A stretch of 64,000 bases of DNA from a virus: UHGV virus genome UHGV-1370141; one strand, written 5' to 3'. This document shows positions 5,510-63,194 of this stretch, piece by piece. Position 1 is the first letter of the stretch. Every line of letters begins with the position of its first letter. Under the pieces are notes generated by a model that did not search any database, was not told where the DNA came from, and saw only the letters and a list, made by a program, of their open reading frames with translations. The translations under genes were made by a program, and so were the position numbers.

Positions 5510-6040
5510 TTAAGCAGTAAAACCGTCCAATTCACCGTTGGTGGTGGCCAGGTCAATACGATTATCGACAACCTTCGGTGTAATTACGAAAGTTGCCATT
5601 ACACCCGGTTTATAACGGAGGTTCTGTTCAGTAACGGTGCACGTCACGGTACGCAGAGTGACGTTTTCATGTTCGTCTTTCTGGTCTTCGGTGCTGTACA
5701 CAACGTCACCTGGCGCGATAGCGTCGTCAGGTTTTACTTTGTTGATGTAATATTGTAACCAAGCGCGGAGTTCGTTTTCTTGAACCCAGCGAGACAGATC
5801 ATCAGTTAGTTCAATCCGTCCTACAACACCTGGCTCCAGACGATCGTAATGCAGTTCGATTGCACCTTTGAAATTCTCAGAACCTGGTAGTGCAGTCATG
5901 GTAACTTTGGTATTCTTACTTTCGCCTTCCAGCGCAGTAGGGAGACCAAAGGACACTTCTTTATCAGTAATCTGATGTGGTAGCTCAGTGTTAGCAGCAT
6001 TATAAAGCGCGACCAACATCATCTGGTTAGTAGCGGCCAT
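5510..6040 (-). CDS. hypothetical protein (176 aa), paralog of 6112..6684
   Basis: ORF; C-terminus ...GELDGFTA shared with neighbour. Confidence 0.6.
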   Translation of the reverse strand: MAATNQMMLVALYNAANTELPHQITDKEVSFGLPTALEGESKNTKVTMTALPGSENFKGAIELHYDRLEPGVVGRIELTDDLSRWVQENELRAWLQYYINKVKPDDAIAPGDVVYSTEDQKDEHENVTLRTVTCTVTEQNLRYKPGVMATFVITPKVVDNRIDLATTNGELDGFTA

Positions 6041-6111
6041 TATCTTAGGTCCTTAATAGAACAAGTTAGAGAAATATCGGGGGAGGTCACCCCCCCCCCG
6101 ATTTAACTTAC

Positions 6112-6684
6112 TTAGCCACCGACACCCGGCGCAGTGAAGCCATCAAGTTCACCTTCCAGACCGCCCAGTGCTACCTTCTCAGGAGCTGGGTTGGAATAAG
6201 TGAAAGTAGCAATAGTACCCGCCAGGAATTTAATGTGGCCATCGTTTACTTTGACAGTGTAAACTTTAGCACCGCTGTCGCCTTCGGATTTAACGATAGT
6301 GAGTTCGCTCTCTGCAAACGCGTCATCGACATAACCTTTAGTAACCATTTCTTTGTTCAGTTTGGTTACAATGGCAGAGTTTTCCAGATCGAGACTACCA
6401 GCTTGTTCGTAAGCTTTAGCACCGATCAGGTCTTGGGATGCCAGACGGATATAATGGAATTCTTTCTCGCCTTTGAAGTTCTGGCTTTCTGCCTTGGCGG
6501 TCAGTGTAATTTTGGTGTTACGACCAGCGTCTCCGCTGTGCGCTTCGACAGCACCAAAATCGACATCACCAACCGTCAGATTAGAAGCGGTTGCAGAGTT
6601 TTTAGCAATTACAGCTTCGATGAGCTGTTGTTTGAAGGCTTTAGCCATCTTTTTTACCTCGTAAGTGGTAGGGGTGGATTGCAT
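6112..6684 (-). CDS. hypothetical protein (190 aa), paralog of 5510..6040
   Basis: ORF; similar length and C-terminal GELDGFTA motif. Confidence 0.6.
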   Translation of the reverse strand: MQSTPTTYEVKKMAKAFKQQLIEAVIAKNSATASNLTVGDVDFGAVEAHSGDAGRNTKITLTAKAESQNFKGEKEFHYIRLASQDLIGAKAYEQAGSLDLENSAIVTKLNKEMVTKGYVDDAFAESELTIVKSEGDSGAKVYTVKVNDGHIKFLAGTIATFTYSNPAPEKVALGGLEGELDGFTAPGVGG

Positions 6685-14025: not shown

Positions 14026-14050
14026 CCTAAGTAATATATATCTGAAAATA
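14026..14050 (-). promoter_or_regulatory. conserved promoter-like motif (copy 1) with adjacent hairpin
   Basis: Minus-strand TCAGATATATATTACTTAGG, one of three near-identical copies; followed by hairpin 14005..14026; upstream of gene 13480..13974. Confidence 0.5.
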
Positions 14051-17568: not shown

Positions 17569-17597
17569 CCCTAGGTAATATATATCTGAGAAAAAAT
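17569..17597 (-). promoter_or_regulatory. conserved promoter-like motif (copy 2) with adjacent hairpin
   Basis: Minus-strand CTCAGATATATATTACCTAGG; hairpin gagtgaa/ttcactc at 17546..17566; upstream of 17054..17497. Confidence 0.5.
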
Positions 17598-18257: not shown

Positions 18258-18772
18258 TAGTGGCCTCCGAATGTTAAGACACGGTTATCTGCGGTAACGA
18301 TTAAATCGTTGTCTTTTACTACAGCGGCTTCTTCATCGTTACCGAAAACCAGAACGGAGAATTGGCCTTTATAACCTAACGAGTTGGGTGAAACCTGTAA
18401 CGTTACAGCGTCTTTCCCTACGGTAAATGATTCGTCGGTAAGATCGTCGGGTTGTAAATTACAACCACAAGCCGCGTTAATTCCGTCGATTAGATCGTGT
18501 GCGGTAAAGCCATTACCGGAAACCTTTACCAGAATAGGTTGCTGGTTTAACCACCGCTCTGCGGTTAAACGGTTGTAATAAATCTGTAACGTTCTGTTGT
18601 CCGGACGTTTTATCTTTACAACAGCAGTGGTGTCACGATCCATTTCGTTACTGGTCTTTACGTCGCTGACTTCAACCTCGTTCTCTTGCAGGTCGAGCTG
18701 GAGGTCATGGTTAACCAGTGAAATAACCATGTTAAGTGAAGTTAACGACAAATCTGGCGTGAATTGTTCCAC
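18257..18772 (-). CDS. hypothetical fibre-associated protein (171 aa), paralog of 28024..28587
   Basis: N-terminus MEQFTPDLSLTSLNMVISLVNHD... matches 28024..28587; start codon is GTG at 18772 with AGGAGGT RBS. Confidence 0.55.
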   Translation of the reverse strand: MEQFTPDLSLTSLNMVISLVNHDLQLDLQENEVEVSDVKTSNEMDRDTTAVVKIKRPDNRTLQIYYNRLTAERWLNQQPILVKVSGNGFTAHDLIDGINAACGCNLQPDDLTDESFTVGKDAVTLQVSPNSLGYKGQFSVLVFGNDEEAAVVKDNDLIVTADNRVLTFGGH

Positions 18773-18870
18773 GTATGGTTACCTCCTATGATTGGGGAGA
18801 CGTAAAATGTTGGCTAAAAACATTTCACCCCCCCCCGATTACGTTTTCAAGCACACTCGCTTGAAAATTA

Positions 18871-19393: not shown

Positions 19394-20032
19394 TTAAACA
19401 CGTGAACCGTATATTGCACCTACTGCGTCCCATCTTGGCGCATTACCAGTAACAGCTTTACCAGCTGCTCCGCCGTTATATTCTGTACCGTTACCATGAG
19501 TATTACATCTTCCTCCAGCAGCACCGACATTACCACCCGAACCGCCTGTATATGCACTAAGAGACCCCTCACCAACAGATCCTCTACCAGGAGCGGAAAT
19601 AGTACCAGCAGCTGCACCGGAACTCATATGAGAGGAAGACCCACCAGCACCGCCTGGCGAGTTAGAACCACCGTTGCCTCCTCTGCCGTATACTGTAACC
19701 CCAGGATTGATGATGAGTGTAATATACGAATTTGGAAGATTGCTAGGGAATTCTAAACAAGGAACCCCGCTACTATAAGACACTAAATCCCCTGTAATGG
19801 TCACAACGACAGCAGTAGAGCCTAAAGAACGTAAATAGTTAATAAGAGTATCCTTATTATAGCTATGGTTAGCACCAATAGAATAATGGACCTCTTTTGA
19901 TTTTCCCGCCAATTGCGACATCCAGCCTGGAACCGGCACACCAAGTGTGCGCATCGCGCCAGACATCCATTCGTTACCAGCTTCAGCTTTTGCTGAAGAA
20001 CCAATCCAACCACCTACGCCGACAACTGCCAC
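19394..20032 (-). CDS. glycine-rich adhesin-like protein (212 aa)
   Basis: Gly-rich segments (GGNGGSNSPGGAGGSS...) separating other sequence, reminiscent of T2-type gp38 adhesins. Confidence 0.5.
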   Translation of the reverse strand: MAVVGVGGWIGSSAKAEAGNEWMSGAMRTLGVPVPGWMSQLAGKSKEVHYSIGANHSYNKDTLINYLRSLGSTAVVVTITGDLVSYSSGVPCLEFPSNLPNSYITLIINPGVTVYGRGGNGGSNSPGGAGGSSSHMSSGAAAGTISAPGRGSVGEGSLSAYTGGSGGNVGAAGGRCNTHGNGTEYNGGAAGKAVTGNAPRWDAVGAIYGSRV

Positions 20033-23000
20033 TAGGATCTCCCTTTGATTTCGTTAACCTCTTGACGCAACGCTTTCATACCCTCTACTAACAGCGCAAT
20101 AACGCCATTGTAGTTTAGACGTAAACGTTTTTCGCCTGAAATGGCATCATCATCCTCAGACACAAGTTCAGGTAACGCTTCTAATGCGTCTTGAGCAATT
20201 AGACCTACAGAAGTTTGCCAACCGTCATCCGGATGCTGAATTTCGTACAAATAACCAGTTAGTAACTCTAACCGATCCAAAGCCTTATCCAGCTTCACCA
20301 GATTACGTTTGTTACGACGGTCAGAACGAATCTGTACGTCGTTAAACGAACCGTTACCGCTGCCAGTAACGTTATGACCAAAGGTTACTTGGCCATTAGC
20401 GTTATTAAAATACAACGGACGTAGTCCGTTCCAGGAACCCGTTGCAGCTTGTCCGGCGTCGGTTACTAAGAAATAGGTATTGGCACCATCGTTACGTAAC
20501 ATAAAGCCGTAGTTGCCGTAAGCGATTCGAAAATCAGGGTACTTAGTGACCAATTTACCGTTAACGGTTAAATCGCCACCTATAGTACCGCCCCCTGACG
20601 GTAACGCACCGATGTCACCAGCGTTAGGTTTGTTGTGTGTGCTGTAAATCAGATAGACGGTACCGTCTGTTAGTCCTGCGGGTTTATTAGCCGTATAGCT
20701 TGGCGATGTGTGAATCGTTACGTTGGCATTACTAGTGTAGTCCCACTGAATATTAACACCGGTGGCGTAATTACCTATTTCAACATAAATATCGTAAGTG
20801 TCACCAGATGTATTCACCCATGCAAAATTAGTGAAGCCGACTGAGGTCAGTCGCCATAACGCACCAGTAATACCTTTTGGATTCCCATTTCCTGCACGCA
20901 GAACCAGCTCAGAGATACCTGCTTGATGCGGGGAACCAACGTTAAACCCTGCACCACCAATCAGGCTTATGTAAACCACGGAACTGGCTTGTGGCATCGT
21001 TACAGTTGCTAGTTTGAACCATCCGGCACCACCATTAAAAGACACAGTTGTTGTGTTCGCGGCACCAACATTTCGTAAGAATTTTCTCTTATCTGGAATA
21101 TCGGCACCGTTCTGTTTCTTCTGCAATGACCCACCGGCCAATTCTACAGTTTGGCCAAGATTTAAACTTTCAGCCGTTATTTCGATGTTTTTAGTGCCGT
21201 CAAACGCAATACCGTTGATGGTTCTTGCAGTTTGCAACTTTGTTGCAGTGGCCGCGTTTCCGGTGGTCGACTGATTACCCGTTTGGTTTACTCCAGGAAG
21301 ATTAACGTCTTTCGTCCCATCGAAAACCACACCACCGATCCTACGTCCTGTTTGTAACTTGGTAGCGGTTGCTGCATTACCTGTCGTATTCTGGTTGCCT
21401 TGCTGGTTAACCCCCGGTAAATTGATATCCCCAGTACCGTCAAAGGTAACGCCGCCGATTCTGCGAGCGGTTTTCAGTTTCGTCGCGGTAGCGGCGTTGC
21501 CGGTAGTATCTTGATTACCTGTGGTATTTACGCCAGGAATACTGTCACGGGCAGTATAAACTTGTGCCCAATCTGACCACGGCGCATCTGCCGTATCACG
21601 TCGACTACGAATATAAACTGGCGCGTGCGCACCACTCGTGCCCGACCAACCAATTAACAACTCGCCTTCGCCTAGCGCAGCAGAACCACCCAAATGCAGT
21701 AAGTTACCATAAGCGGTCGGATAACCGTTATTGTAAACTTCGTACATCTGAATACCAGGCGTACCTTTGTTTGAACCAGTCAGTGCAGTAACACGTCCAC
21801 GTCCTACCAACGTGTTGATATTGATGTCTCTAGACCCATCAAATTTCACACCGTTGATGTTTCGAGCCGTTTGTAATTTGGTTGCGGTTCCCGCGTTCCC
21901 AGAGGTGTTTTGATTACCTTGTTGGTTAACACCTGGGAGGTTAACGTCGCCGCTACCGTCGAAGGCGACCCCACCAATTCTACGTGCCGTCTTTAATTTA
22001 GTGGCGGTTGAAGCATTGCCTGTTAACTCACCTGCTAACCCTTTTGCAAAGGTCTGTTTTTCTGCCCAGGTGTGCGCTGCGTTCAATACAGGCATCTGGC
22101 GTGGCGTAATTGTTCGACTACCTTTCTCACCAGCGATACGAACAGCAAAGAAGCGATAGTTGGCAGTAGACACCGTACTACGCCAAACCAACATGCTCCG
22201 ACCGGTGCCGGTGTCATCAGACGGCCCTACAAGGATGTTAACTAAGTTACCGTCAATCACACCCCAATCCATTCCCGCAGGAATATTTTTCATGGTGTTC
22301 AACGGTGACGTTAACATCTGACCGGGAACGAAGTCGTAGGTTTGCCAGTCTAACGGGTCAACCTTAGCAGCTACACCACCAATGCCTAAAACTAACGGAA
22401 GTGAATACGAGGTGAAAACCTCTCGCCACCCACTCCAAATGTTACCCGTACGGATACGTTGGAATTTACGACCTTTAGTTTCTCTACCCGTGCCGTATGT
22501 GGTATAATTCTGTTCGACCCCTGTACCGTCTAAGCGTAAGGTAACTTCACAAACGCCTACCACGGTTTCGCTAGAAGAACCGATAAGTGGACCGTTAGTT
22601 GCCTCACCAGTGACACTGAAACGACCCGGTTTAACGAGATCGTTAAAATTGGCTTTAAAGAAAGCACCGTCAGTCTGATAACCAACCTGAATCCAATCTT
22701 CCCATTGTGGGTTTGATGAATCCCACGTTGCAGTCAAACCACGGACATACATTGTGCCACGACGCGTAGTGTATCGCTGCAACCGTCCGAAAAGACCACC
22801 TTCCATTACTTCTAGTACGCCTTGCGCGTTACCGCCTTCTTCAGGGTAATGCCGGTCGAACACCGCTAACGAACTGGACGAGTTCCGCCAGTTACCCATA
22901 TGCTCAGCGCCACCCAGAGAGTTCAAGTCTATAGAGGTAGACAGTGGGCGAACACCAGTGGTTACCATTCTCCACGGTGACCAGGGTCCATTAGTTCCGT

Positions 23001-24513
23001 TCCACACACCTGACAACATACGGTTGTACACGTTACCATTACGACAGGTAAAACGTTGCGCGCCACTGTAGTTGCCCGCTTTATACACTTCCAGATAACC
23101 GACTGCACCGTCTTCTGGGAAGTGTTTTGCCATCGACGCATTGGTTGATGTCGACTTAGACCACGTTCCTGTGTAATTAGCATCTGGAGCAAATGTGTTA
23201 ATATCAGCATCTACAGGCATTTCGCCACGGAAACGCAGGTAGGTATCAGGAGATAGGCCGATGTTGCGAGCAAAAGTTTCTTTATCTGGGATATCAGCGC
23301 CGTTAGAGTTTTTCTGTAACGCACCATTCGCTTTATCGACGGTAGTTTTCAAACCCAGGAAGTTAATGATATCCGCCGTCGACCCTTTCGCTAACAAATC
23401 GCGCGCAGTCGAGGTGAAATCCGCTAATCCCACCCGATTACTACCGGTAAAGTAAGGGAGTTTGTTTGCAGCGGTGGTGACTGCGGCAATCGCTGTCAGT
23501 AACGGACTTAACGGCTGTTTACCCGCGAGTTGGTTCGTTATCGTTGTCGCAAAGTTAGGATCGTTTCCTAACGCGGCTGCAATTTCTGATAACGTATCTA
23601 ACGTCTCGGGTGAAGAGTCCACTAATTCAGCAATCGCTTGCCGTACCCATGCCGTCGTTGAGACTGTCGTGTCGTTAGAATCCGCAGCAGGAGTCGGAGC
23701 TTTTACTACGCCAGTAAACGTCGGCGAGTGACGGTTTGCTTTTAACTGCAAATCATCATTTAACTGCTTAACCGTTGACGGTGTAGCCGCTTCCGTAACC
23801 GAGTCACTGGTTAAGGTATTATTAAGTTTAACGATACCTTTACTGGACGTTGTTGCATCAACGTTACCTTTTGCAGCGATTTCCTCTGCACGCTTAGCGG
23901 CTGCCTCAGAACGCGTTGCCGCATTCTCTGCGGTTTCTTTGTCTGAGGTAACTTGCGTTGCTGTAGCCTCTACAGAGGCTTTTGACGACTCTACTGACGC
24001 GACAGCTTCGTTAACTGCCGTAAGCGACTGTTCTACTTGACCGGCTTGTGTGGCAACAGTTTCTGCTTTCTTCGTAACGGTAGTCACCGCTTGTGTGACG
24101 TTGGCCTCGCTTGCCGCTACCGCTTGTGCTTTCTCATTAACGGACACAACCTGGGTATCTACCGCCGTTTTCGCGGCTAACACTTCAGTGTGTTTTGTAC
24201 CGACCTCAGTTGCTTTTTCGGTTACAGTTTGCGCTTGTTGAGCAACCGTAGCCGCAACGGTGTCAGTTTGTTGTTTTGCTGTTTCTGCTAAATTCTTTGC
24301 TTGTGTAGCCTGAGTTGCAGCTTCTTGTGATTGTGTTGCTGCTGCTTGTGCATCAGACACCGCATTACGCACGGTGTCAATATCTGCAACGATCTCACGG
24401 ACTGGTAACTTATAATCTTTCTCATCTTTGGAGAAAAGTAAAACACCTTCACCGATATCCCCGGTGTATGGACGTAAGTCGTGTAAACGAATTTTCTTTA
24501 CCGCTTTAGCCAT
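20032..24513 (-). CDS. long tail fibre protein (1493 aa) with C-terminal S74-type intramolecular chaperone domain
   Basis: N-terminal anchor domain; multiple repeats ...GNAATATKLQTARRIGGVxFDGTxDxNLPGVNQ...; C-terminus ...SDRRNKRNLVKLDKALDRLELLTGYLYEIQ... typical of self-cleaving chaperone. Confidence 0.85.
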   Translation of the reverse strand: MAKAVKKIRLHDLRPYTGDIGEGVLLFSKDEKDYKLPVREIVADIDTVRNAVSDAQAAATQSQEAATQATQAKNLAETAKQQTDTVAATVAQQAQTVTEKATEVGTKHTEVLAAKTAVDTQVVSVNEKAQAVAASEANVTQAVTTVTKKAETVATQAGQVEQSLTAVNEAVASVESSKASVEATATQVTSDKETAENAATRSEAAAKRAEEIAAKGNVDATTSSKGIVKLNNTLTSDSVTEAATPSTVKQLNDDLQLKANRHSPTFTGVVKAPTPAADSNDTTVSTTAWVRQAIAELVDSSPETLDTLSEIAAALGNDPNFATTITNQLAGKQPLSPLLTAIAAVTTAANKLPYFTGSNRVGLADFTSTARDLLAKGSTADIINFLGLKTTVDKANGALQKNSNGADIPDKETFARNIGLSPDTYLRFRGEMPVDADINTFAPDANYTGTWSKSTSTNASMAKHFPEDGAVGYLEVYKAGNYSGAQRFTCRNGNVYNRMLSGVWNGTNGPWSPWRMVTTGVRPLSTSIDLNSLGGAEHMGNWRNSSSSLAVFDRHYPEEGGNAQGVLEVMEGGLFGRLQRYTTRRGTMYVRGLTATWDSSNPQWEDWIQVGYQTDGAFFKANFNDLVKPGRFSVTGEATNGPLIGSSSETVVGVCEVTLRLDGTGVEQNYTTYGTGRETKGRKFQRIRTGNIWSGWREVFTSYSLPLVLGIGGVAAKVDPLDWQTYDFVPGQMLTSPLNTMKNIPAGMDWGVIDGNLVNILVGPSDDTGTGRSMLVWRSTVSTANYRFFAVRIAGEKGSRTITPRQMPVLNAAHTWAEKQTFAKGLAGELTGNASTATKLKTARRIGGVAFDGSGDVNLPGVNQQGNQNTSGNAGTATKLQTARNINGVKFDGSRDININTLVGRGRVTALTGSNKGTPGIQMYEVYNNGYPTAYGNLLHLGGSAALGEGELLIGWSGTSGAHAPVYIRSRRDTADAPWSDWAQVYTARDSIPGVNTTGNQDTTGNAATATKLKTARRIGGVTFDGTGDINLPGVNQQGNQNTTGNAATATKLQTGRRIGGVVFDGTKDVNLPGVNQTGNQSTTGNAATATKLQTARTINGIAFDGTKNIEITAESLNLGQTVELAGGSLQKKQNGADIPDKRKFLRNVGAANTTTVSFNGGAGWFKLATVTMPQASSVVYISLIGGAGFNVGSPHQAGISELVLRAGNGNPKGITGALWRLTSVGFTNFAWVNTSGDTYDIYVEIGNYATGVNIQWDYTSNANVTIHTSPSYTANKPAGLTDGTVYLIYSTHNKPNAGDIGALPSGGGTIGGDLTVNGKLVTKYPDFRIAYGNYGFMLRNDGANTYFLVTDAGQAATGSWNGLRPLYFNNANGQVTFGHNVTGSGNGSFNDVQIRSDRRNKRNLVKLDKALDRLELLTGYLYEIQHPDDGWQTSVGLIAQDALEALPELVSEDDDAISGEKRLRLNYNGVIALLVEGMKALRQEVNEIKGRS

Positions 24514-28058: not shown

Positions 28059-28587
28059 CTGGAACCTCAAATGTAAGAACGGCATCGTCACCAATACAGA
28101 AGATTGCATCTTCTTCGTTTGCTAATGCCCGTTCGGTTGTATCAAACAACGTCACCATAAACGCGTTCATCCACGCAGGAGAATCGTCGGCAACGTTAAC
28201 GGAAATGGGATCGTTACCTAAAGTGATATCTGAAGCACGTAAATCCTCGGGTTGTAAGTTCGTTCCGCAGAATTCATTTACAACACTAAGAATGTCACGA
28301 ACGTTGTCTTCAGTACCGTCTAACGAAATCAGAATGGGTTCATACGTTAATACTTCATCTGCGTCGAGTCTGTCGTAGTAAACCACAACAGACGCGCCAT
28401 CCGGTTTTCTGATTTTACTGATTTCGGTAATGGTGTTACGACGCGAAGTTGTTGGGGATGGGTTTGTTACAGTTCCGCTAATACGGATTTCGTTTAGTGT
28501 AAGCTGTAACCCGTTATCATGATTGATTAAAGCGACCACTAGCTCTGCTGAGGTCAGACTCAAATCAGGTACGTATGGTGTGGCCAC
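28024..28587 (-). CDS. hypothetical fibre-associated protein (187 aa), paralog of 18257..18772
   Basis: MATPYVPDLSLTSAELVVALINHD... ; overlaps start of 27597..28058. Confidence 0.5.
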   Translation of the reverse strand: MATPYVPDLSLTSAELVVALINHDNGLQLTLNEIRISGTVTNPSPTTSRRNTITEISKIRKPDGASVVVYYDRLDADEVLTYEPILISLDGTEDNVRDILSVVNEFCGTNLQPEDLRASDITLGNDPISVNVADDSPAWMNAFMVTLFDTTERALANEEDAIFCIGDDAVLTFEVPDGDSTEEDETP

Positions 28588-28713
28588 TTAACCCTCCGAG
28601 ATCAAAAAAAATAAAACACCTACCGCCCATAGAATCGGGCGGTAGGAGACTATTCTGTAGTTAAAAATCAAGAACGATTAGTGATTTTTTTCGGAAGATT
28701 TCGATAGAATTTT

Positions 28714-29088: not shown

Positions 29089-29285
29089 TAGGAACGGGTC
29101 TGCGATTCAGCCATCAGCGCACAACTTTTCACAGCCTGTGCATGAAGTTCTGTACCCGGTGTGTAATCCTTTATACAATCCTGATACAATTCGCTTTTCT
29201 TTTCTAAAACACGATTGTCACACTCGGCACTTGCTAGTGCCCCTGCGATAAGGATAAAAACTAGAATCGGCAACCAAATTTTCAT
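29088..29285 (-). CDS. small secreted/membrane protein (65 aa)
   Basis: N-terminal hydrophobic segment; paralog of next small ORF (shared Y-x-x-C ... V-x-x-C pattern). Confidence 0.4.
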   Translation of the reverse strand: MKIWLPILVFILIAGALASAECDNRVLEKKSELYQDCIKDYTPGTELHAQAVKSCALMAESQTRS

Positions 29286-29494
29286 TGCCCACCTCCCATT
29301 CGTTTAGCGTATTCCGTACATGCCATTACTAATTCAGCATAACGTGGGTTATCGACAGTGGTACCTGACATACATTCACGATAAAGGGACTCTTTACGCG
29401 ATTCGTCAGACGTCTTAACGTAGAACATCAGCATCGTTACAATCAGCGCAGTTGAAACAATTGCTGAGATGATATATCCGTCATTTATTTTCAT
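29282..29494 (-). CDS. small membrane protein (70 aa)
   Basis: N-terminal transmembrane segment; paralog of 29088..29285. Confidence 0.4.
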   Translation of the reverse strand: MKINDGYIISAIVSTALIVTMLMFYVKTSDESRKESLYRECMSGTTVDNPRYAELVMACTEYAKRMGGGQ

Positions 29495-33422: not shown

Positions 33423-33523
33423 TTTAGATTACTCCATTTAGTTAAGTGAGAATTCTCACATAGATGAAATATATCTTAAATTTTTTAGACCGTTAACAAC
33501 ACAATGCTGAAGCCATATCGAAA

Positions 33524-38493: not shown

Positions 38494-38523
38494 CACTAAG
38501 GTAATATATATCTGAGAAAAAAT
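38494..38523 (-). promoter_or_regulatory. conserved promoter-like motif (copy 3) with adjacent hairpin
   Basis: Minus-strand CTCAGATATATATTACCTTAGTG; hairpin gagattac/gtaatctc 38476..38494; upstream of HTH gene. Confidence 0.5.
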
Positions 38524-39987: not shown

Positions 39988-40596
39988 TTATTGATGGTCA
40001 ACAATCGGACCACTCCACACTTCTGACGTTTCCGGTGCGGTGAGATTAGCAGCCTGTGCAGACGGTACACACAGTATAACTAACCCTTGCTTAGCAAGAT
40101 AGTGCTGCATTCTTGCGGCCTGTACTGCGGTGTCCACAATAACGAGCTCAGCGCCTCGTAGAAGCGCTAAAGCCGCTTGGCCTTCTTGCGGTGTGGTAAA
40201 CGCGTCTGAGTCGTCCAGAATGCGTTTGAGGCGGTTATACGCAAGTCCTGTAACGTTACAGTGTTCGGTACGTAAATCAACAACCATTTCGTTATAGACC
40301 CCCACAACCTGTTGCGTAGAGTTTGGATAAAAGCGAAACGAGGCACGACGACGCGCACGACGGACTTCAGAAATCGCACGTTGGAGTACCACTAATACGT
40401 ATTTCGGTGCTGCGTCTGACGTCGGTCTACGCATCTTCGCTAACCGCGCTGCCAAATCGAGAACTTTCGTTAACGGGTAGCGGTGCTTAAACCCCTCCCG
40501 TTCAATCGTCACCCCACGCTTTGGTAGCTTACCGGTTTTGTTGATATACGCCACCGTAATCAGCAGTAATGAGTCGAGAATCATCTCTGACATCAC
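39988..40596 (-). CDS. hypothetical protein (202 aa)
   Basis: ORF. Confidence 0.5.
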   Translation of the reverse strand: MMSEMILDSLLLITVAYINKTGKLPKRGVTIEREGFKHRYPLTKVLDLAARLAKMRRPTSDAAPKYVLVVLQRAISEVRRARRRASFRFYPNSTQQVVGVYNEMVVDLRTEHCNVTGLAYNRLKRILDDSDAFTTPQEGQAALALLRGAELVIVDTAVQAARMQHYLAKQGLVILCVPSAQAANLTAPETSEVWSGPIVDHQ

Positions 40597-40606
40597 AATA
40601 CCCTCT

Positions 40607-40978
40607 TTAGAACCCCTCGAGAACAGCTTTCACAAATTCATAAACCGTGCGTCGGTGTTCTTCAAGTGGATAAACAAACTTAGAATAATCGTTGTTCCAG
40701 ACAACCGGATAGAGGTCACCGTCACAACTTAAATAGCTCTTACGAACCATGTAATAATCTAAACCTACACGGAAGTTTAACGACAGACTGCCGTGTTTAC
40801 TACAAACGTGTAGCTGGAGCGATTTCACACCGTCGCGGGTTGGCGTTTCAATCGTTTCCGCATACAATACATCCGAACACTGTTCTATAACGCTAACGAC
40901 ATCTCTGAGGTTGTTGTGAGCATCGATGGTCGCTTTTCGGAGAGCGTCGGTGTATTGCTGAAGTTCTCGATAGAACAT
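40607..40978 (-). CDS. hypothetical protein (123 aa)
   Basis: ORF. Confidence 0.45.
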   Translation of the reverse strand: MFYRELQQYTDALRKATIDAHNNLRDVVSVIEQCSDVLYAETIETPTRDGVKSLQLHVCSKHGSLSLNFRVGLDYYMVRKSYLSCDGDLYPVVWNNDYSKFVYPLEEHRRTVYEFVKAVLEGF

Positions 40979-57394: not shown

Positions 57395-59170
57395 TTAACG
57401 GCCAATCTTCGCAATATCTTCTTCGGTTGCTTGGATTAACTCGTCAAGTTTTGGATTACGAACCATCACTAACTGACGGTTAGTTTTCATGTACGGGTTA
57501 AGGACACCCCATTTGAACGGGGACGATTTCGGAATGTAATAAACGTTACCGCACTCCAGATGCGATGCAGAAGCGTGTTTCGTACGGTCGTTAAGGTTAA
57601 CCGTTTTACCGCCTTTGCTGTTACGTTTAGATTCCGTTTCAGTTTGACTAATCGCGTGTGTGGATACTCCTAACACCATGGACTCTGTTGATGCGTTGAA
57701 ATAACTTACACCGCCGTTACCAGTGATATTACGCAACACCAGACTCGTGACAATTTCTTTATTGAGTGCGCTACGAATCATATTCGCGCAGGATTCTGGC
57801 GAACGATTCTCCGTTTGTCCCAGATGGAAACGAATAGCCGCTACCGTTGGTGTAAACCCACGGTCACCTAACAGTAAGTAGTCAGTCACGGTTAAACGTT
57901 TTCCGTACATCGACGGAATGTCACCCTGTTTAGTCAAACGGGTACGTACCATCAGTTTCGTTGCATACCAGAAGAAATCAAACATATCCATGTCGTCTGG
58001 AATGTCAGGATCGGTCATCTTCAGTTCTGCACGGAACGTTGAGTTAACGTAGCGATCGCATTCGGTATAATGTTTCGCCATACTGTGTGCTAACTCAATA
58101 TCGGAAGGTTTTAGTCCTACGATACTTCTTCCCAGAATCTCACGCCAAATCGGAGCAGAGTTCAGGTTAGCAATATCGTCTTCCATCGCTAACTCGTTAA
58201 TTGCAGTAAACAGCGGCGGGAGCGGCGTGACGTTACCGTTCTTAATGGATTGTTTACTGCAATAGTAGTGAGCGGCTTTGAAGAACGCAGCAATTGCGGC
58301 CAGCAACAAATGCTCGTTTTGATCCCAACCAACTTTATCCACGTTCGGCAATGCTTCTGCGGGTACGACAACCGCGTACATTATCGAACGGTTATATTTC
58401 GATTCACCGGAACTGATTACAACTTTCTCGTTGAGATCGAGTTCTGGGATCTTAAACGATGGATAAATTTCTACGTCAACACCAGTATAGCGTTTAATCG
58501 CTTCTTTAAATCCATAACGTCCGAACAACCAATACATTAACGGTTTCTCGTCGGTATCAGGATGTGTTGCGTTCTTCGCTTTGAACAGGTTTTTGGTTCC
58601 TGGTAAGAATAGCTCCTCTTTTTTACCGTTGACTAACACACGGACAGGTTGCTTACAGAATTTCAACGAGGCTTTACGTTTAAAGTCAAAGTTAACAAAT
58701 ACCCCACCGTGTTCGCGACAGATACCTGGCTGGTGAATAACCGGTGCAACATGATACGTCGTACCGTAATAGTTCATTAAACCACCACGACGGATAAAGG
58801 GTAAGTTAATCGGTCTTGAGATCGGTCGAGAATCTCCTGGAATACGGAATGTTGACATGACCATATACGCATCGGTATTCGCAATGGACATCACACCACG
58901 ACGTCTATCCATTCTGCTGCTCTCAGAACGAGACAGCTTATAGATGAACGTTTCAAACGGTGACATTAACCGTACACCTAATACAGCCAGCCCTTCAGGA
59001 ACACGCGGATTATCAACAGGATGATAATCCAGCTCACGTTTCAAGATAATCTGAACACGCTCGTGTATACCGTCTTTGGCCTGTGTATAACCGACACCTT
59101 CCGCAATCGCTCGGTTAAAGGGTACTATTTTGCCATCCTCTTTAAGCTTTCTGATTGCATCTTTAAACAC
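57395..59170 (-). CDS. hypothetical virion-region protein (591 aa)
   Basis: Long ORF. Confidence 0.6.
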   Translation of the reverse strand: MFKDAIRKLKEDGKIVPFNRAIAEGVGYTQAKDGIHERVQIILKRELDYHPVDNPRVPEGLAVLGVRLMSPFETFIYKLSRSESSRMDRRRGVMSIANTDAYMVMSTFRIPGDSRPISRPINLPFIRRGGLMNYYGTTYHVAPVIHQPGICREHGGVFVNFDFKRKASLKFCKQPVRVLVNGKKEELFLPGTKNLFKAKNATHPDTDEKPLMYWLFGRYGFKEAIKRYTGVDVEIYPSFKIPELDLNEKVVISSGESKYNRSIMYAVVVPAEALPNVDKVGWDQNEHLLLAAIAAFFKAAHYYCSKQSIKNGNVTPLPPLFTAINELAMEDDIANLNSAPIWREILGRSIVGLKPSDIELAHSMAKHYTECDRYVNSTFRAELKMTDPDIPDDMDMFDFFWYATKLMVRTRLTKQGDIPSMYGKRLTVTDYLLLGDRGFTPTVAAIRFHLGQTENRSPESCANMIRSALNKEIVTSLVLRNITGNGGVSYFNASTESMVLGVSTHAISQTETESKRNSKGGKTVNLNDRTKHASASHLECGNVYYIPKSSPFKWGVLNPYMKTNRQLVMVRNPKLDELIQATEEDIAKIGR

Positions 59171-59180
59171 GCCACGCTCC

Positions 59181-60191
59181 TTATTTTAGCATCCCTATAA
59201 ATGCGACACCCGCCGCCAGATACGCAGGGACTGATTTAAATAGGTCTGACCCATCTTTACGAATGTAAGAACGAGTCTCGTAGAATTCTTTTCGTGCCTC
59301 TGCCCGAGACTTTGCTTCTAGTTCTTGTTGTTTATACGCTAGAGTCAAACGCTCCTTTTCCAAAGCCAAATTCTGTAGTTGTTTTTTGTGTTCTATTTCC
59401 AGTTTGTCTTTTGCCGAATCCAAACTTTCTAATTTTTCTCTGTATTGACTTTCCAGCTTTTCCTTTATCTCGTGAATATCCGGTAACGTTTCTTGCCATC
59501 GAAACGCAGTGGCTGTTTCTTTATCTTTAAAAACACGGAACGGTGACAATAAGTCATCGAACTCGAAGTGAATCATCCTGCTCCCTTCTACTTTGTCTCC
59601 ACCTCCGATTACCATATACACACCCGGTTCGTAATACCGTGATAGTACCGGTTGTACTTCCATGCGCGTTCCGTAGAATCTAATCCAACGATATAGTTCG
59701 GGATCGTCGTAACGCTGCACAACAATAACACCTAATGTAAATTCAGTTCTCTCACCTCCTGGTCTTACGCTCGGTGGCGTACTTTCTAATCGAACTGGTG
59801 TAATTGAAAATGCGAATCCTAGCTGCTTCAATACAACCAAGTCCCCACGTAATAAAGCACCGATATCGTCAACCACGTATCGGAGTGTGACCTCTCCTTT
59901 CTCCTTTAAATCTGCACAAAATTTAGTGAATTGTTTTTCTGGTAAGACTTCTGCAAACCCGTTCAGGTTAGCCAGATTTCCGAACGATTGATACGTTACA
60001 TAAACAACAACCCCATGCTCATCAGCCGGGCTTTTGGACGGAGTTAAAATAAAGCTACCGCCACTGGTTTCAGTGACGTAAATTGGCACACCAGTATTAT
60101 TCTCAAAAGTGATGAGTTTTTGTAGTCCTGACTTTTGATACAACGAACGGTCAGTAATACTGGGTACCACATCAATATCAAGACGGTTCAT
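59181..60191 (-). CDS. hypothetical protein with coiled-coil C-terminal region and terminal hydrophobic segment (336 aa)
   Basis: ORF. Confidence 0.55.
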   Translation of the reverse strand: MNRLDIDVVPSITDRSLYQKSGLQKLITFENNTGVPIYVTETSGGSFILTPSKSPADEHGVVVYVTYQSFGNLANLNGFAEVLPEKQFTKFCADLKEKGEVTLRYVVDDIGALLRGDLVVLKQLGFAFSITPVRLESTPPSVRPGGERTEFTLGVIVVQRYDDPELYRWIRFYGTRMEVQPVLSRYYEPGVYMVIGGGDKVEGSRMIHFEFDDLLSPFRVFKDKETATAFRWQETLPDIHEIKEKLESQYREKLESLDSAKDKLEIEHKKQLQNLALEKERLTLAYKQQELEAKSRAEARKEFYETRSYIRKDGSDLFKSVPAYLAAGVAFIGMLK

Positions 60192-60332
60192 GTAGGGGCC
60201 AGATTAAGTTTTAATAATGGTACATATCTTTAGTCTTAAATGTATTTTTTCCATAAAGTCTCCTTTAAACCAACTGACAGTCTCCCTTTGATAATATCTA
60301 TCCAAAAAATAATAGAAAGAAAAAAATAAAAG

Positions 60333-60356
60333 GTCTAAGCCCCGAAGGGCTTAGAC
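60333..60356 (-). terminator. stem-loop terminator after the 761-aa gene
   Basis: gtctaagccc cgaa gggcttagac; A-rich plus-strand flank gives T-run on minus strand. Confidence 0.65.
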
Positions 60357-60371
60357 ACTTTTTATTCGGTA

Positions 60372-62657
60372 TTATTTACCAGCTTTGTCTTTACCGTCGC
60401 CAGCAACATTACCTGCTACACCACCTTCGGTTTGTTTCTGGCCGTTCTGTTCTACAGAAACGTTGTAAGCCAGTTTTTCTTCAACCAGTTTAGTGATGCC
60501 TTTAACCCAAATCAGACCAGTGATCGGGCAGTGGCAGATATGCGCGTTACGCGGCTGTACAGCCAGTTCTTTAGAAGTAGAACTGTTACGCTGGATGTTG
60601 ATGTTGGTAACCATGATCGGAGACCAGAAGTGGTTACCCCAGTTCAGTACGCAGTAGGAACCATCGTCCGCAGTCGGAACTTTCAGGAACCATTGCAGAC
60701 GACGAGTCCAGGAATCGTCAGCTGCGTTGTAGATACGCCAGCGGTCATCGTTGGTGGTAACGACTTCGTATTCATAACGGTCGCCCAGCAGACGTTGGTC
60801 GCCCTGAACCAGCAGCAGCATGGATGCAGTCGGTTCGTCAGTTGCGATAATAACTTTCGGCAGAATGTCCGGATCAGCGGTCAGCAGGCGCAGTGCAGGA
60901 ATGAAACGAGAATCCTGGATAGCCTGAGTTACCTGGCTACCGATACGCTGCAACAGACCCTGACGAGCGTTGATCAGCGCTTCTTTGGTATCCAGAGACT
61001 GAACAACTTCATCGACTTTGTAGTCAGACTCTTTGAACCACGGAGCAACCCAGTGACGGCCCAGACCACGGATAGCCGGTTTGTCCCACGGAGTGATCAT
61101 CGCAGCGGCTGCGTTACGTACTGCTTCGGTGTAAGACAGCGTCTGAGTAATAGCCAGCTGTTCGTTACGGATGTTCACCGCAGAGATCAGGTCGTCCAGA
61201 CGTTCAGTGTCGTCGTATTCAACACCAACCGGAGACTTGGTCAGAATCGGAGAACCGTATTGCAGTTTGTAGTTTTCCTGTTCCCAAATTGGGTCAAGCA
61301 GCAGACCCTGGGTACGACGGTTTTCGTTGGTACGAGTACCATCGAAGCGCCAGCCCATCAGCTCGAGCTTCAGGCCGTCCAGGATAACTTTACCGGTACC
61401 AGACTTGGTATCAACTTTGTTACCAGTTGCATCGTACAGACCTTCGATTTCCAGTTTGTGGCCGGAAATGTCTACTTTACCACCGAACTGGCCGCTGGTG
61501 AACAGGGACATGGTGATGGTGATAACGTAGCGCAGGGTGTAGGAGTTCTGGCCCAGTGCTTGCAGAGCCGGAATAGCTGCACCAGTCCAGTCGGTAGTTT
61601 TCGCATTCAGAGAGAACGCGGTACGACGGAATTGCAGAACCAGTTCACGGCCGTCACCTTCAGCAGGACGCTGGAAGGTTGCGAACTGCATGTCACGAAC
61701 GTGCAGTTTGATGAATTTACCCGCTTTCGCTTCTTCGGTCGGTTTACGTACAGAAATCAGCAGGCTGCCCAGAGCACAACCCGGTGCGATTTCATCAGTT
61801 TCATCGTAACCTTCCTGAACGATACCCGGATGCGCAGACAGCTGGAACAGGTTCAGCGTGTCGTTTGCAAAGCTCAGGTAGTTAGTCGGATACGGAGGTA
61901 CACGACCCAGGCGAACGGTTTCGTTCGGAACCAGTTCTTCGCTTACGAAGTATTCCTGGTTTTCACCGGTTTCCATTACGTAAGGAACGATGTTGATCGC
62001 TTCGTCCTGGAGAACGGTGTGGTCAGTCAGTGCGTTGTGCAGCGGACGACGATGGTCTTCAACCACGTCTTTGCTCAGCAGCGCGTTCATGATACCGCGA
62101 GAAACGGTAGTCACTTTAGTACGTACGGTAATACCAACATCGTTGGTGTCAACGGTAATGGTCGGGAACAGCGTTTCAGCAAACTTGGACTGAGTTTCCA
62201 GAGCACGTACGTTCAGGGTCCAGGTCAGGCCCAGGTTTTTGTCGTAGTCTTTGTTGCTGTAGTATTCCTGAGCAACAACCATGCGCTCACGACCCCAGTC
62301 ACCACCTTGCGCACCAGGGATACCAATATCCAGGTTATACTTGCTGTGGAATTCCGGCTTAGCGTATTCCTGGGCAACACGTTCTTGCAGGTCTTTACCG
62401 TGGTTAGCTGCGCCCAGAATCATTGCGGAGGCGACAGTCGCAGCATGAGACATTTTCTTGCCACCAAAAGCGTTGGCATAGTGCTGTGATGCTTCGTCAC
62501 GCAGAGCGCCAAACACTTTTGCGTTGCTACGTACGGACTCGCCTGCAACAATCGTGTTCCACATTTCGCTGGCGGTGTTGTTGCCGATGACGTTTTGGGC
62601 CAGACTAGTACCGGCTTCTACGAGTTTCTCTAAATTAGAGATTCGGGTATCTTTCAT
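60372..62657 (-). CDS. major virion structural protein (761 aa), candidate major capsid protein (or tail sheath)
   Basis: Strong bias to CTG/CGT/GGT/ACC/GAA/AAA codons unlike neighbours, indicating very high expression; own terminator; size fits phiKZ-like major capsid proteins. Confidence 0.65.
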   Translation of the reverse strand: MKDTRISNLEKLVEAGTSLAQNVIGNNTASEMWNTIVAGESVRSNAKVFGALRDEASQHYANAFGGKKMSHAATVASAMILGAANHGKDLQERVAQEYAKPEFHSKYNLDIGIPGAQGGDWGRERMVVAQEYYSNKDYDKNLGLTWTLNVRALETQSKFAETLFPTITVDTNDVGITVRTKVTTVSRGIMNALLSKDVVEDHRRPLHNALTDHTVLQDEAINIVPYVMETGENQEYFVSEELVPNETVRLGRVPPYPTNYLSFANDTLNLFQLSAHPGIVQEGYDETDEIAPGCALGSLLISVRKPTEEAKAGKFIKLHVRDMQFATFQRPAEGDGRELVLQFRRTAFSLNAKTTDWTGAAIPALQALGQNSYTLRYVITITMSLFTSGQFGGKVDISGHKLEIEGLYDATGNKVDTKSGTGKVILDGLKLELMGWRFDGTRTNENRRTQGLLLDPIWEQENYKLQYGSPILTKSPVGVEYDDTERLDDLISAVNIRNEQLAITQTLSYTEAVRNAAAAMITPWDKPAIRGLGRHWVAPWFKESDYKVDEVVQSLDTKEALINARQGLLQRIGSQVTQAIQDSRFIPALRLLTADPDILPKVIIATDEPTASMLLLVQGDQRLLGDRYEYEVVTTNDDRWRIYNAADDSWTRRLQWFLKVPTADDGSYCVLNWGNHFWSPIMVTNINIQRNSSTSKELAVQPRNAHICHCPITGLIWVKGITKLVEEKLAYNVSVEQNGQKQTEGGVAGNVAGDGKDKAGK

Positions 62658-62669
62658 TTGTTTAATACC

Positions 62670-63194
62670 TTAATGAGATAAATGACATGCGTATAATTGC
62701 GTCAGCACTTCGTTAGCGGCAAACTGCGTTGAGGTACTGAAGCAGTCATCCACGACGCGAGTCTTGGTACGCATATATTTAAAAAGTTCTGCGCAGAACA
62801 TCTTTTTCGCAGCGTGGTCTTCACCCGAAGAAAAACCCGAACCGGACTTCGCTTCTGCAAATGACGCCACAATCGTATCACCACGTTGGGTAAAGACCCA
62901 GCGTAAGCGACAAGGAATTGTTTCCCCATATAAATCGTCAAGGGAAACCTTTTCGCCTGATTCGACCAGACGTAACACCTGATCATAATATTTACCTGGA
63001 AGTACAGGCGGAGCCATTAACGCTTTATAAATAGCAGAACGACTTACTTCAGGTATAATGATAGAACTGAAACCATTCGGACAGTCATATAACCAGTTAA
63101 AGAACCCTGCCTGGAGCAATTCTACACTTTTAACGGCAGCGCCTTTATCTATGTTAGGCTGAACTTCCCACGGTGGACTAAAACGAATTTGCAT
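62670..63194 (-). CDS. hypothetical protein (174 aa)
   Basis: ORF; start uncertain. Confidence 0.45.
   Translation of the reverse strand: MQIRFSPPWEVQPNIDKGAAVKSVELLQAGFFNWLYDCPNGFSSIIIPEVSRSAIYKALMAPPVLPGKYYDQVLRLVESGEKVSLDDLYGETIPCRLRWVFTQRGDTIVASFAEAKSGSGFSSGEDHAAKKMFCAELFKYMRTKTRVVDDCFSTSTQFAANEVLTQLYACHLSH

Follow-up and report, generated by a model that had tools for sequence, protein, structure and literature searches.

A 761-codon open reading frame with strongly adapted codon usage is predicted to encode the phiKZ-type major capsid protein precursor of an enterobacterial jumbo phage

The viral sequence UHGV-1370141 contains a long open reading frame on its minus strand whose codon usage stands apart from that of most of its neighbours. 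The question raised by this locus is what the reading frame encodes and what kind of virus carries it. The window referred to below is the whole stretch of DNA that was analysed, 64,000 nt in length. An initial annotation had placed a 761 aa structural gene at this position and proposed it as a candidate major capsid protein (MCP) of a phiKZ-like jumbo phage with an enterobacterial host. The open reading frame starts with ATG at position 62657 and terminates with TAA at positions 60372–60374, i.e. it has 761 codons, and both the coordinates and the length first assigned to it are exact.

60372..62657, minus strand: MCP gene; 761 aa precursor of 84.5 kDa, orthologue of SPN3US gp75 and phiKZ gp120

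The translated sequence matches the Pfam family PF25620 (PhiKZ_MCP) in a profile search with a score of 689.2 bits against a cut-off of 27 (E = 5.7e-207). The match encompasses residues 72–726 and profile positions 2–634 of 635, and it is also found precomputed for the identical protein on public contigs. PHROG 3231, "major head protein", matches residues 1–751 (E = 9e-279). No family outside the MCP families was matched in the Pfam and PHROG searches of the 761 aa protein. A PDB sequence search shows matches to four sets of capsid chains (11bt, 36za, 8bfl and phiKZ gp120, 8y6v) at residues ~100–730. From homology to these solved chains, the 761 aa protein is expected to display an HK97 fold with an added insertion domain.

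A tblastn search with the MCP sequence against 50,697 deposited phage genomes gave matches in 194 records, nearly all of them annotated as major capsid or head protein. The top records are the Erwinia phages phiEaH2, Stratton and Asesino, with 79.4%–79.8% identity over 97%–98% of the protein. Salmonella phage SPN3US and many of its relatives come next at ~78% identity, and none of the 50,697 genomes has a protein of more than 80% identity. The window and the Erwinia phages are also collinear between the virion structural genes and the helicase. Unlike the present lineage, however, their hosts are Erwiniaceae, and at the DNA level identity is 74%–77% over 26%–40% of a 24-kb query. These comparisons support assignment of the 761 aa protein to the phiKZ-type MCPs. 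It is an ordinary orthologue within a known family whose close relatives are well studied, which makes the result unexceptional.

The founding member of PF25620 is phiKZ gp120, for which the cryo-EM structure 8y6v is available. The gp120 sequence belongs to the same family and aligns to residues 99–727, and its solved chain of 747 aa is close in length to the 761 aa found here, a similarity in size that the initial annotation had noted. gp120 consists of the HK97 N-arm, P and A domains together with an insertion (I) domain; it builds a capsid of T=27 and loses its first 163 residues as a propeptide by cleavage at E163|N164 (PMC11297242). The two proteins are distant, however (phmmer E = 2.7e-33). 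The gp120 propeptide has 163 residues vs the 131 predicted here, and host and codon usage are different.

A much closer comparison is with gp75 of SPN3US (Seoulvirus, Chimalliviridae), the experimentally established MCP of that phage (PMC5694885). The overall identity of the two proteins is 77%, and the same genes flank them in the same order. In the window this order is a divergent DnaB-type helicase gene, a 174 aa open reading frame, the MCP gene, a 336 aa open reading frame and a 591 aa open reading frame, which is identical to the arrangement around SPN3US gp75. The order of the MCP region is also that of Asesino, and the neighbours of the MCP gene are conserved in E. coli and Enterobacter records considered below. 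The genes adjacent to the MCP gene are:

62670..63194, minus strand: 174 aa open reading frame, separated from the MCP gene by a 12-nt gap on its upstream side; phrog_8266 (E = 1e-95), orthologue of the SPN3US gene that precedes gp75
59181..60191, minus strand: 336 aa open reading frame downstream; phrog_7286 (E = 5e-121), its position beside the MCP gene conserved by synteny across SPN3US-like phages
57395..59170, minus strand: 591 aa open reading frame with a GTG start; phrog_2943 "polymerase" (E = 2e-170)

In Asesino and SPN3US, the orthologues of the 591 aa open reading frame carry the annotation "polymerase" or "putative RNA polymerase beta subunit", and the reading frame belongs to a hallmark gene class of phiKZ-like phages. 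The order of core genes next to the MCP gene, with a split multisubunit RNA polymerase gene among them, is that of SPN3US-like jumbo phages.

The gp75 protein loses 130 N-terminal residues, as determined by mass spectrometry (PMC5694885). The prohead protease gp245 cuts behind an A-X-E motif, which leaves a mature protein of 70.4 kDa (PMC5694885, PMC10052503). In the alignment, the gp75 site V-A-T-E130|YYTNKD shares its columns with V-A-Q-E131|YYSNKD of the present protein, which is thus divided into two predicted segments:

62265..62657, minus strand: predicted N-terminal propeptide, residues 1–131, aligned to the gp75 cleavage site
60375..62264, minus strand: predicted mature subunit, residues 132–761, 630 aa, 70.4 kDa, from the computed mass and the alignment to solved chains

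A-Q-E131 conforms to the (A/S/G)-X-E pattern of prohead protease sites in phiKZ-type MCPs. The predicted mass of the mature subunit equals that reported for mature gp75 (PMC5694885). The solved chains of phiKZ-type MCPs align to residues 124–730 in the region of the mature subunit. Identity to gp75 is 47.7% at residues 1–131 but 84.6% in the shell-forming core; the low identity of the propeptide, which is one residue longer than that of gp75, is as expected of a scaffold-like propeptide. A PDB search with residues 1–169 alone gave no meaningful match, as is to be expected given that propeptides are missing from mature capsid maps. A gp245 orthologue with 81% identity, annotated as an S80-family morphogenetic serine protease, is present in a sister genome that has a 99.4% identical MCP gene. 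Cleavage by the prohead protease after A-Q-E131 is therefore a well-supported prediction, given the shared columns of the site, the mature mass, the divergence of the propeptide and the presence of the gp245 orthologue in the sister genome. The two proteins also differ at the C-terminal end of the mature subunit. This tail (residues ~736–761) is variable, Gly/Lys-rich and 44% identical to gp75; it is shorter here and rich in Lys, whereas the Gly-rich tail of gp75 is Gly/Thr-rich.

Codon usage was the property that first set the open reading frame apart, and it had been described as almost exclusively CTG, CGT, GGT, ACC, GAA, AAA, TTC and TAC. Highly expressed enterobacterial genes favour CGT, GGT, AAA, GTT, GCT, TCT and ACT together with CTG, ACC and AAC. 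In the MCP gene CTG accounts for 64 of 70 Leu codons and CGT for 33 of 41 Arg codons; CGT and CGC together make up 40 of the 41, and AGA, AGG and CGG are absent. The preferred codons are likewise dominant for Glu (GAA, 43/48), Lys (AAA, 33/40), Phe (TTC, 16/20), Tyr (TAC, 20/24) and Asn (AAC, 39/42). ATA, CTA and ACA have zero uses among the 761 codons. The description thus stands for CTG, GAA, AAC, CGT, AAA, TTC and TAC, but it is overstated for GGT (67%) and ACC (54%). All 58 Gly codons are either GGT (39) or GGC (19), with GGA and GGG absent, and the 59 Thr codons include 32 ACC and 23 ACT. The alternatives used, GGC and ACT, are the second-best codons of highly expressed E. coli genes.

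For a quantitative comparison, codon adaptation index (CAI) weights were derived from 29 E. coli K-12 genes for ribosomal proteins, EF-Tu and EF-G (4,857 codons), a reference set that reproduces the codon preference of highly expressed genes. The set of reading frames scored consists of 78 crude ATG-ORF calls, which cover 91% of the window. The MCP gene has a CAI of 0.770 and an Nc of 33.2. The remaining 77 open reading frames have a median CAI of 0.373 (mean 0.376, sd 0.074, maximum 0.637), which places the MCP gene at z = 5.3, and the two genes that flank it have values of 0.275 and 0.400. The contrast with the neighbouring genes that had been seen by eye is therefore large. E. coli controls give 0.79 for fusA, 0.84 for tufA, 0.52 for rpoA and 0.28–0.38 for the cryptic gsp genes; the MCP gene is on a level with fusA, an elongation-factor gene. 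The fraction of optimal codons is 0.734 in the MCP gene vs 0.446 in the other open reading frames pooled (Fisher p = 7e-54). Along the gene, the CAI is 0.50 in codons 1–76 and 0.77–0.85 in the remainder.

SPN3US gp75, scored with identical weights, has a CAI of 0.770, which is equal to that of the MCP gene here. The adaptation is therefore conserved among capsid genes of this clade, and the equal values clearly illustrate how translational selection acts on the capsid gene of a phage. gp75 is by far the commonest protein of the SPN3US virion, with ~1,560–1,615 copies (PMC5694885, PMC10052503). Selection for very high expression, as first suggested from the codons, is plausible and fits the ~1,600 copies per SPN3US virion (PMC10052503), with expression itself deduced from these properties. 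There are no tRNA genes within the 64-kb window, and codon supply by the phage within the window is thus not an explanation. Codon usage cannot separate the enterobacterial genera Salmonella, E. coli, Shigella and Enterobacter.

The MCP gene is followed by a hairpin that starts 16 nt past its stop codon:

60333..60356, minus strand: intrinsic terminator hairpin with a 10-bp stem, six G-C pairs and a UUCG loop; T-run to ~60320

The terminator RNA folds with −22.5 kcal/mol (z = −5.8), and 0 of 200 shuffled sequences fold as well. On the upstream side, the 174 aa open reading frame is ~15 nt from the start of the divergent helicase gene. With gaps as tight as this and the 12 nt before the MCP gene, any promoter of the MCP gene must sit inside coding sequence. 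A scan for sigma-70-like promoters gave 6 matches vs 6.1 expected, i.e. chance level, and yielded no promoter that can be assigned to the MCP gene.

The assignment to a phiKZ-like phage had also been argued from promoter motifs of the TATATTAC type. The window has four copies of TATATTAC, a motif of phiKZ-type early promoters, vs 2.26 expected, and 18 of 100 shuffled sequences reach four, so the count proves nothing. Most genes of the window are encoded on the minus strand, and all four copies are found on that strand; three of the four are intergenic, with intergenic DNA at 9% of the window. The three intergenic copies are found inside an identical 15-mer, TCAGATATATATTAC, followed by ..GTGAGA. 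The TCAGATATATATTAC copies are located 57–78 nt upstream of start codons, two of them directly after terminator hairpins. TCAGATATATATTAC resembles the predicted promoters of phiKZ, TATATTAC, and of 201phi2-1, ..TTTRARR_BTATATTACDWHDGTG (PMC7058600). Because of the identical intergenic 15-mer and its likeness to published promoters, the motif is probably real and would be consistent with a phiKZ-like transcription system. It has no link to the capsid gene, however, as no TATATTAC-type block is found upstream of or near the MCP gene. The promoter argument thus holds only in part.

The exact 761 aa protein is already public, where it is always labelled "hypothetical protein", and some submitters have called a shorter version of 683/685 aa. 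The cluster at 90% identity has 378 members, which come from assemblies of Salmonella enterica, Shigella flexneri, E. coli and Enterobacter ludwigii. The contigs that carry the protein are ~222–228 kb in length, e.g. ENA NODE_11_length_225879 (225,879 bp). Two records are complete, circular and filed as "plasmid": NZ_CP173450.1, of 221,873 bp, from the urine isolate E. coli 98232, with an MCP gene of 99.2% nucleotide identity, and NZ_CP134650.1, of 222,441 bp, from the gull isolate Enterobacter ludwigii 51A:C, with 99.4%. The sizes of the contigs, all above 200 kb, and the hosts of the isolates therefore confirm both "jumbo" and "enterobacterial host", two proposals of the initial annotation. 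The left 25 kb of the window, with the radical SAM and tail-fibre genes, shows 88.6% identity to the Enterobacter record over 68% of its length, and the capsid region is thus far more conserved than the accessory region.

Relative to SPN3US, the genome is ~15 kb smaller (222–228 kb vs 240 kb), and nucleotide identity is ~78% and in patches, which places the lineage in a different genus. A set of 247 assembly-derived genomes of 220–249 kb from Salmonella, E. coli and Shigella has been described as the proposed genus "Bapsvirus" of the Chimalliviridae, whose genomes are syntenic with Seoulvirus yet distinct (PMC12768965). "Seoul-like" persistent phages have been described similarly (bioRxiv 10.1101/2024.12.31.630880), and chimallin is reported in both sets of assembly-derived genomes (bioRxiv 10.1101/2024.12.31.630880; PMC12768965). 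The present lineage probably belongs to "Bapsvirus". It is alike in genome size, in hosts, in synteny with and divergence from Seoulvirus, and in its absence from collections of phage isolates. The supplement files checked for PMC12768965 show no match to the accessions of the carrying records or to the genus name, and the capsid gene is not discussed in that paper.

Synonymous and nonsynonymous changes were compared with the copy on the E. coli "plasmid". In this one pairwise comparison, pS is 0.026 for the MCP gene and 0.009–0.093 for its neighbours; the MCP value is inside the range of the neighbours, and ongoing selection on synonymous sites is therefore not demonstrable from one pair. The pN/pS of the MCP gene is ~0.1, which indicates that the gene is under purifying selection.

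Taken together, the gene almost certainly encodes the MCP precursor of a ~225-kb phiKZ-like jumbo myovirus of Enterobacteriaceae that is related to SPN3US and belongs to the Chimalliviridae, and no evidence contradicting the MCP assignment was found in the analyses run. We infer the timing and level of expression, the cleavage event and the T number as follows. The MCP would be made late in infection in very large amounts, and the codon usage resembles that of the host's top-expressed genes, presumably because translation of the MCP would dominate late phage protein synthesis. Transcription would stop at the strong intrinsic terminator downstream of the gene. By analogy with the characterised relatives, the subunits, each with an HK97 fold and an extra insertion domain, would assemble as hexamers and pentamers into a T=27 prohead of ~1,600 copies; the genome length of 222–228 kb is near that of SPN3US and phiKZ, both T=27. 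The S80-type prohead protease would then trim each subunit after Glu131 (A-Q-E) to give the 70.4-kDa mature shell subunit.

Two other explanations have to be weighed. The gene could encode a different large structural protein, for instance of the tail sheath, the vertex or a minor head component, whose size and codon bias are like those of an MCP. By size alone, 761 aa fits a jumbo-phage tail sheath (the SPN3US sheath gene has ~680 aa). The sole Pfam and PHROG matches are to MCP families, however, and are near full-length, and the position of the gene is syntenic with gp75. The best matches are not to tail sheath proteins or to non-structural proteins of unrelated phages, the outcome that would have spoken against a capsid gene, and a tail-sheath identity is rejected by the strength of the PF25620 and PHROG 3231 matches (E = 5.7e-207 and 9e-279). 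The probability of this explanation is negligible.

The other explanation is that a domesticated, plasmid-like element that no longer builds virions carries the gene as a relic, with a codon bias that is inherited and not currently selected. All known records of the element are indeed bacterial isolate assemblies or "plasmid" entries and none is a phage isolate, and in the single pairwise comparison the synonymous sites are without special constraint. A relic is nevertheless very unlikely. The MCP reading frame is intact in hundreds of copies, i.e. the 378-member cluster, with the low pN/pS noted above; the cleavage motif is intact, as are the genes for the protease, tail, tail fibres and RNA polymerase. 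In addition, the CAI of the MCP gene is undiminished relative to that of the lytic phage SPN3US, and in published analyses such contigs are seen as virulent phages in a persistent or carrier-state infection (PMC12768965; bioRxiv 10.1101/2024.12.31.630880).

The lineage has been reported before, and its MCP gene, a straightforward orthologue of a structurally and genetically characterised protein, is of little importance in itself; the family already has a Pfam model, several cryo-EM structures and a 77%-identical orthologue that is characterised genetically and proteomically. Its identity does however define its surroundings. With the MCP identified, the whole window represents an SPN3US-related jumbo phage of Enterobacteriaceae, and other features of the window, the radical SAM cluster among them, are therefore to be read as jumbo-phage accessory genes. 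There is also a value for annotation, as RefSeq and GenBank label the capsid gene "hypothetical protein" on records that are filed as plasmids or bacterial contigs. The lineage appears never to have been isolated as a virus; hundreds of isolate assemblies contain it as ~225-kb contigs or "plasmids", its only known form. Given an intact MCP gene that evolves under purifying selection and has lost none of the codon adaptation seen in lytic SPN3US, it is rather likely that the lineage actively produces virions from a carrier state and is neither decaying nor domesticated. If this is true, the MCP gene, everywhere labelled "hypothetical protein", would be a natural marker for finding such elements.

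A 15-nt block, TCAGATATATATTAC, occurs in the window in three identical copies, all on the minus strand and each in an intergenic gap:

14031–14038 plus flanks, minus strand, copy of the 15-nt block
17575–17582 plus flanks, minus strand, copy of the 15-nt block
38501–38508 plus flanks, minus strand, copy of the 15-nt block

Each copy is located 57–78 nt upstream of a minus-strand start and is followed by (C/T)T..GTGAGA. A hairpin with a T-run precedes the block at two of the three positions. A degenerate copy is found near 33466, and there is possibly a second near 60300, between the terminator of the major capsid protein (MCP) gene and the 336-aa open reading frame. The block is probably an early (virion RNA polymerase) promoter of the UHGV-1370141 phage.

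Two neighboring open reading frames are paralogues, both assigned to phrog_4862:

5510–6040, minus strand, 176 aa, codon adaptation index (CAI) 0.509
6112–6684, minus strand, 190 aa, CAI 0.637

The latter CAI is the second-highest in the window. Both display weak matches to virion structural proteins and probably encode abundant components of the virion. Homopolymer runs, G10 and G9, occur within intergenic hairpin-like sequences at about 6041–6111 and 18731–18870 (CGGGGGGGGGGTGACCTCCCCCG; CGGGGGGGGGTGAAATG); these could be sites prone to slippage or to sequencing error.

The crude gene calling gave no ATG-initiated open reading frame of at least 75 aa at positions 28110–28713, 29089–29480 and 40594–40884, stretches of 290–600 nt each. 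They probably contain small genes, or genes that begin with GTG or TTG.

NZ_CP173450.1 (E. coli) and NZ_CP134650.1 (Enterobacter ludwigii) are complete jumbo-phage genomes filed as "circular plasmids". The capsid gene is named "hypothetical protein" in all public records (these two and the exact-protein cluster), and in some assemblies a later start call (M79) shortens it to 683/685 aa.

Conservation was contrasted between positions 1–25000 and 40000–64000. The MCP gene is 99.4% identical to its counterpart in NZ_CP134650.1, whereas the left part (1–25000), which carries radical SAM proteins and tail fibres, shows 88.6% identity over 68% of its length. This is the pattern of a conserved core next to a mosaic accessory and host-range region. 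The left part includes:

20032–24513, minus strand, tail-fibre open reading frame, 1493 aa

Segments of this tail-fibre gene (19407–21128) are 85%–88% identical to tail-fibre/receptor-recognising genes carried by E. coli records, filed as "plasmids", of roughly 48–112 kb, which suggests that receptor-binding modules have been swapped with unrelated coliphage-like elements.
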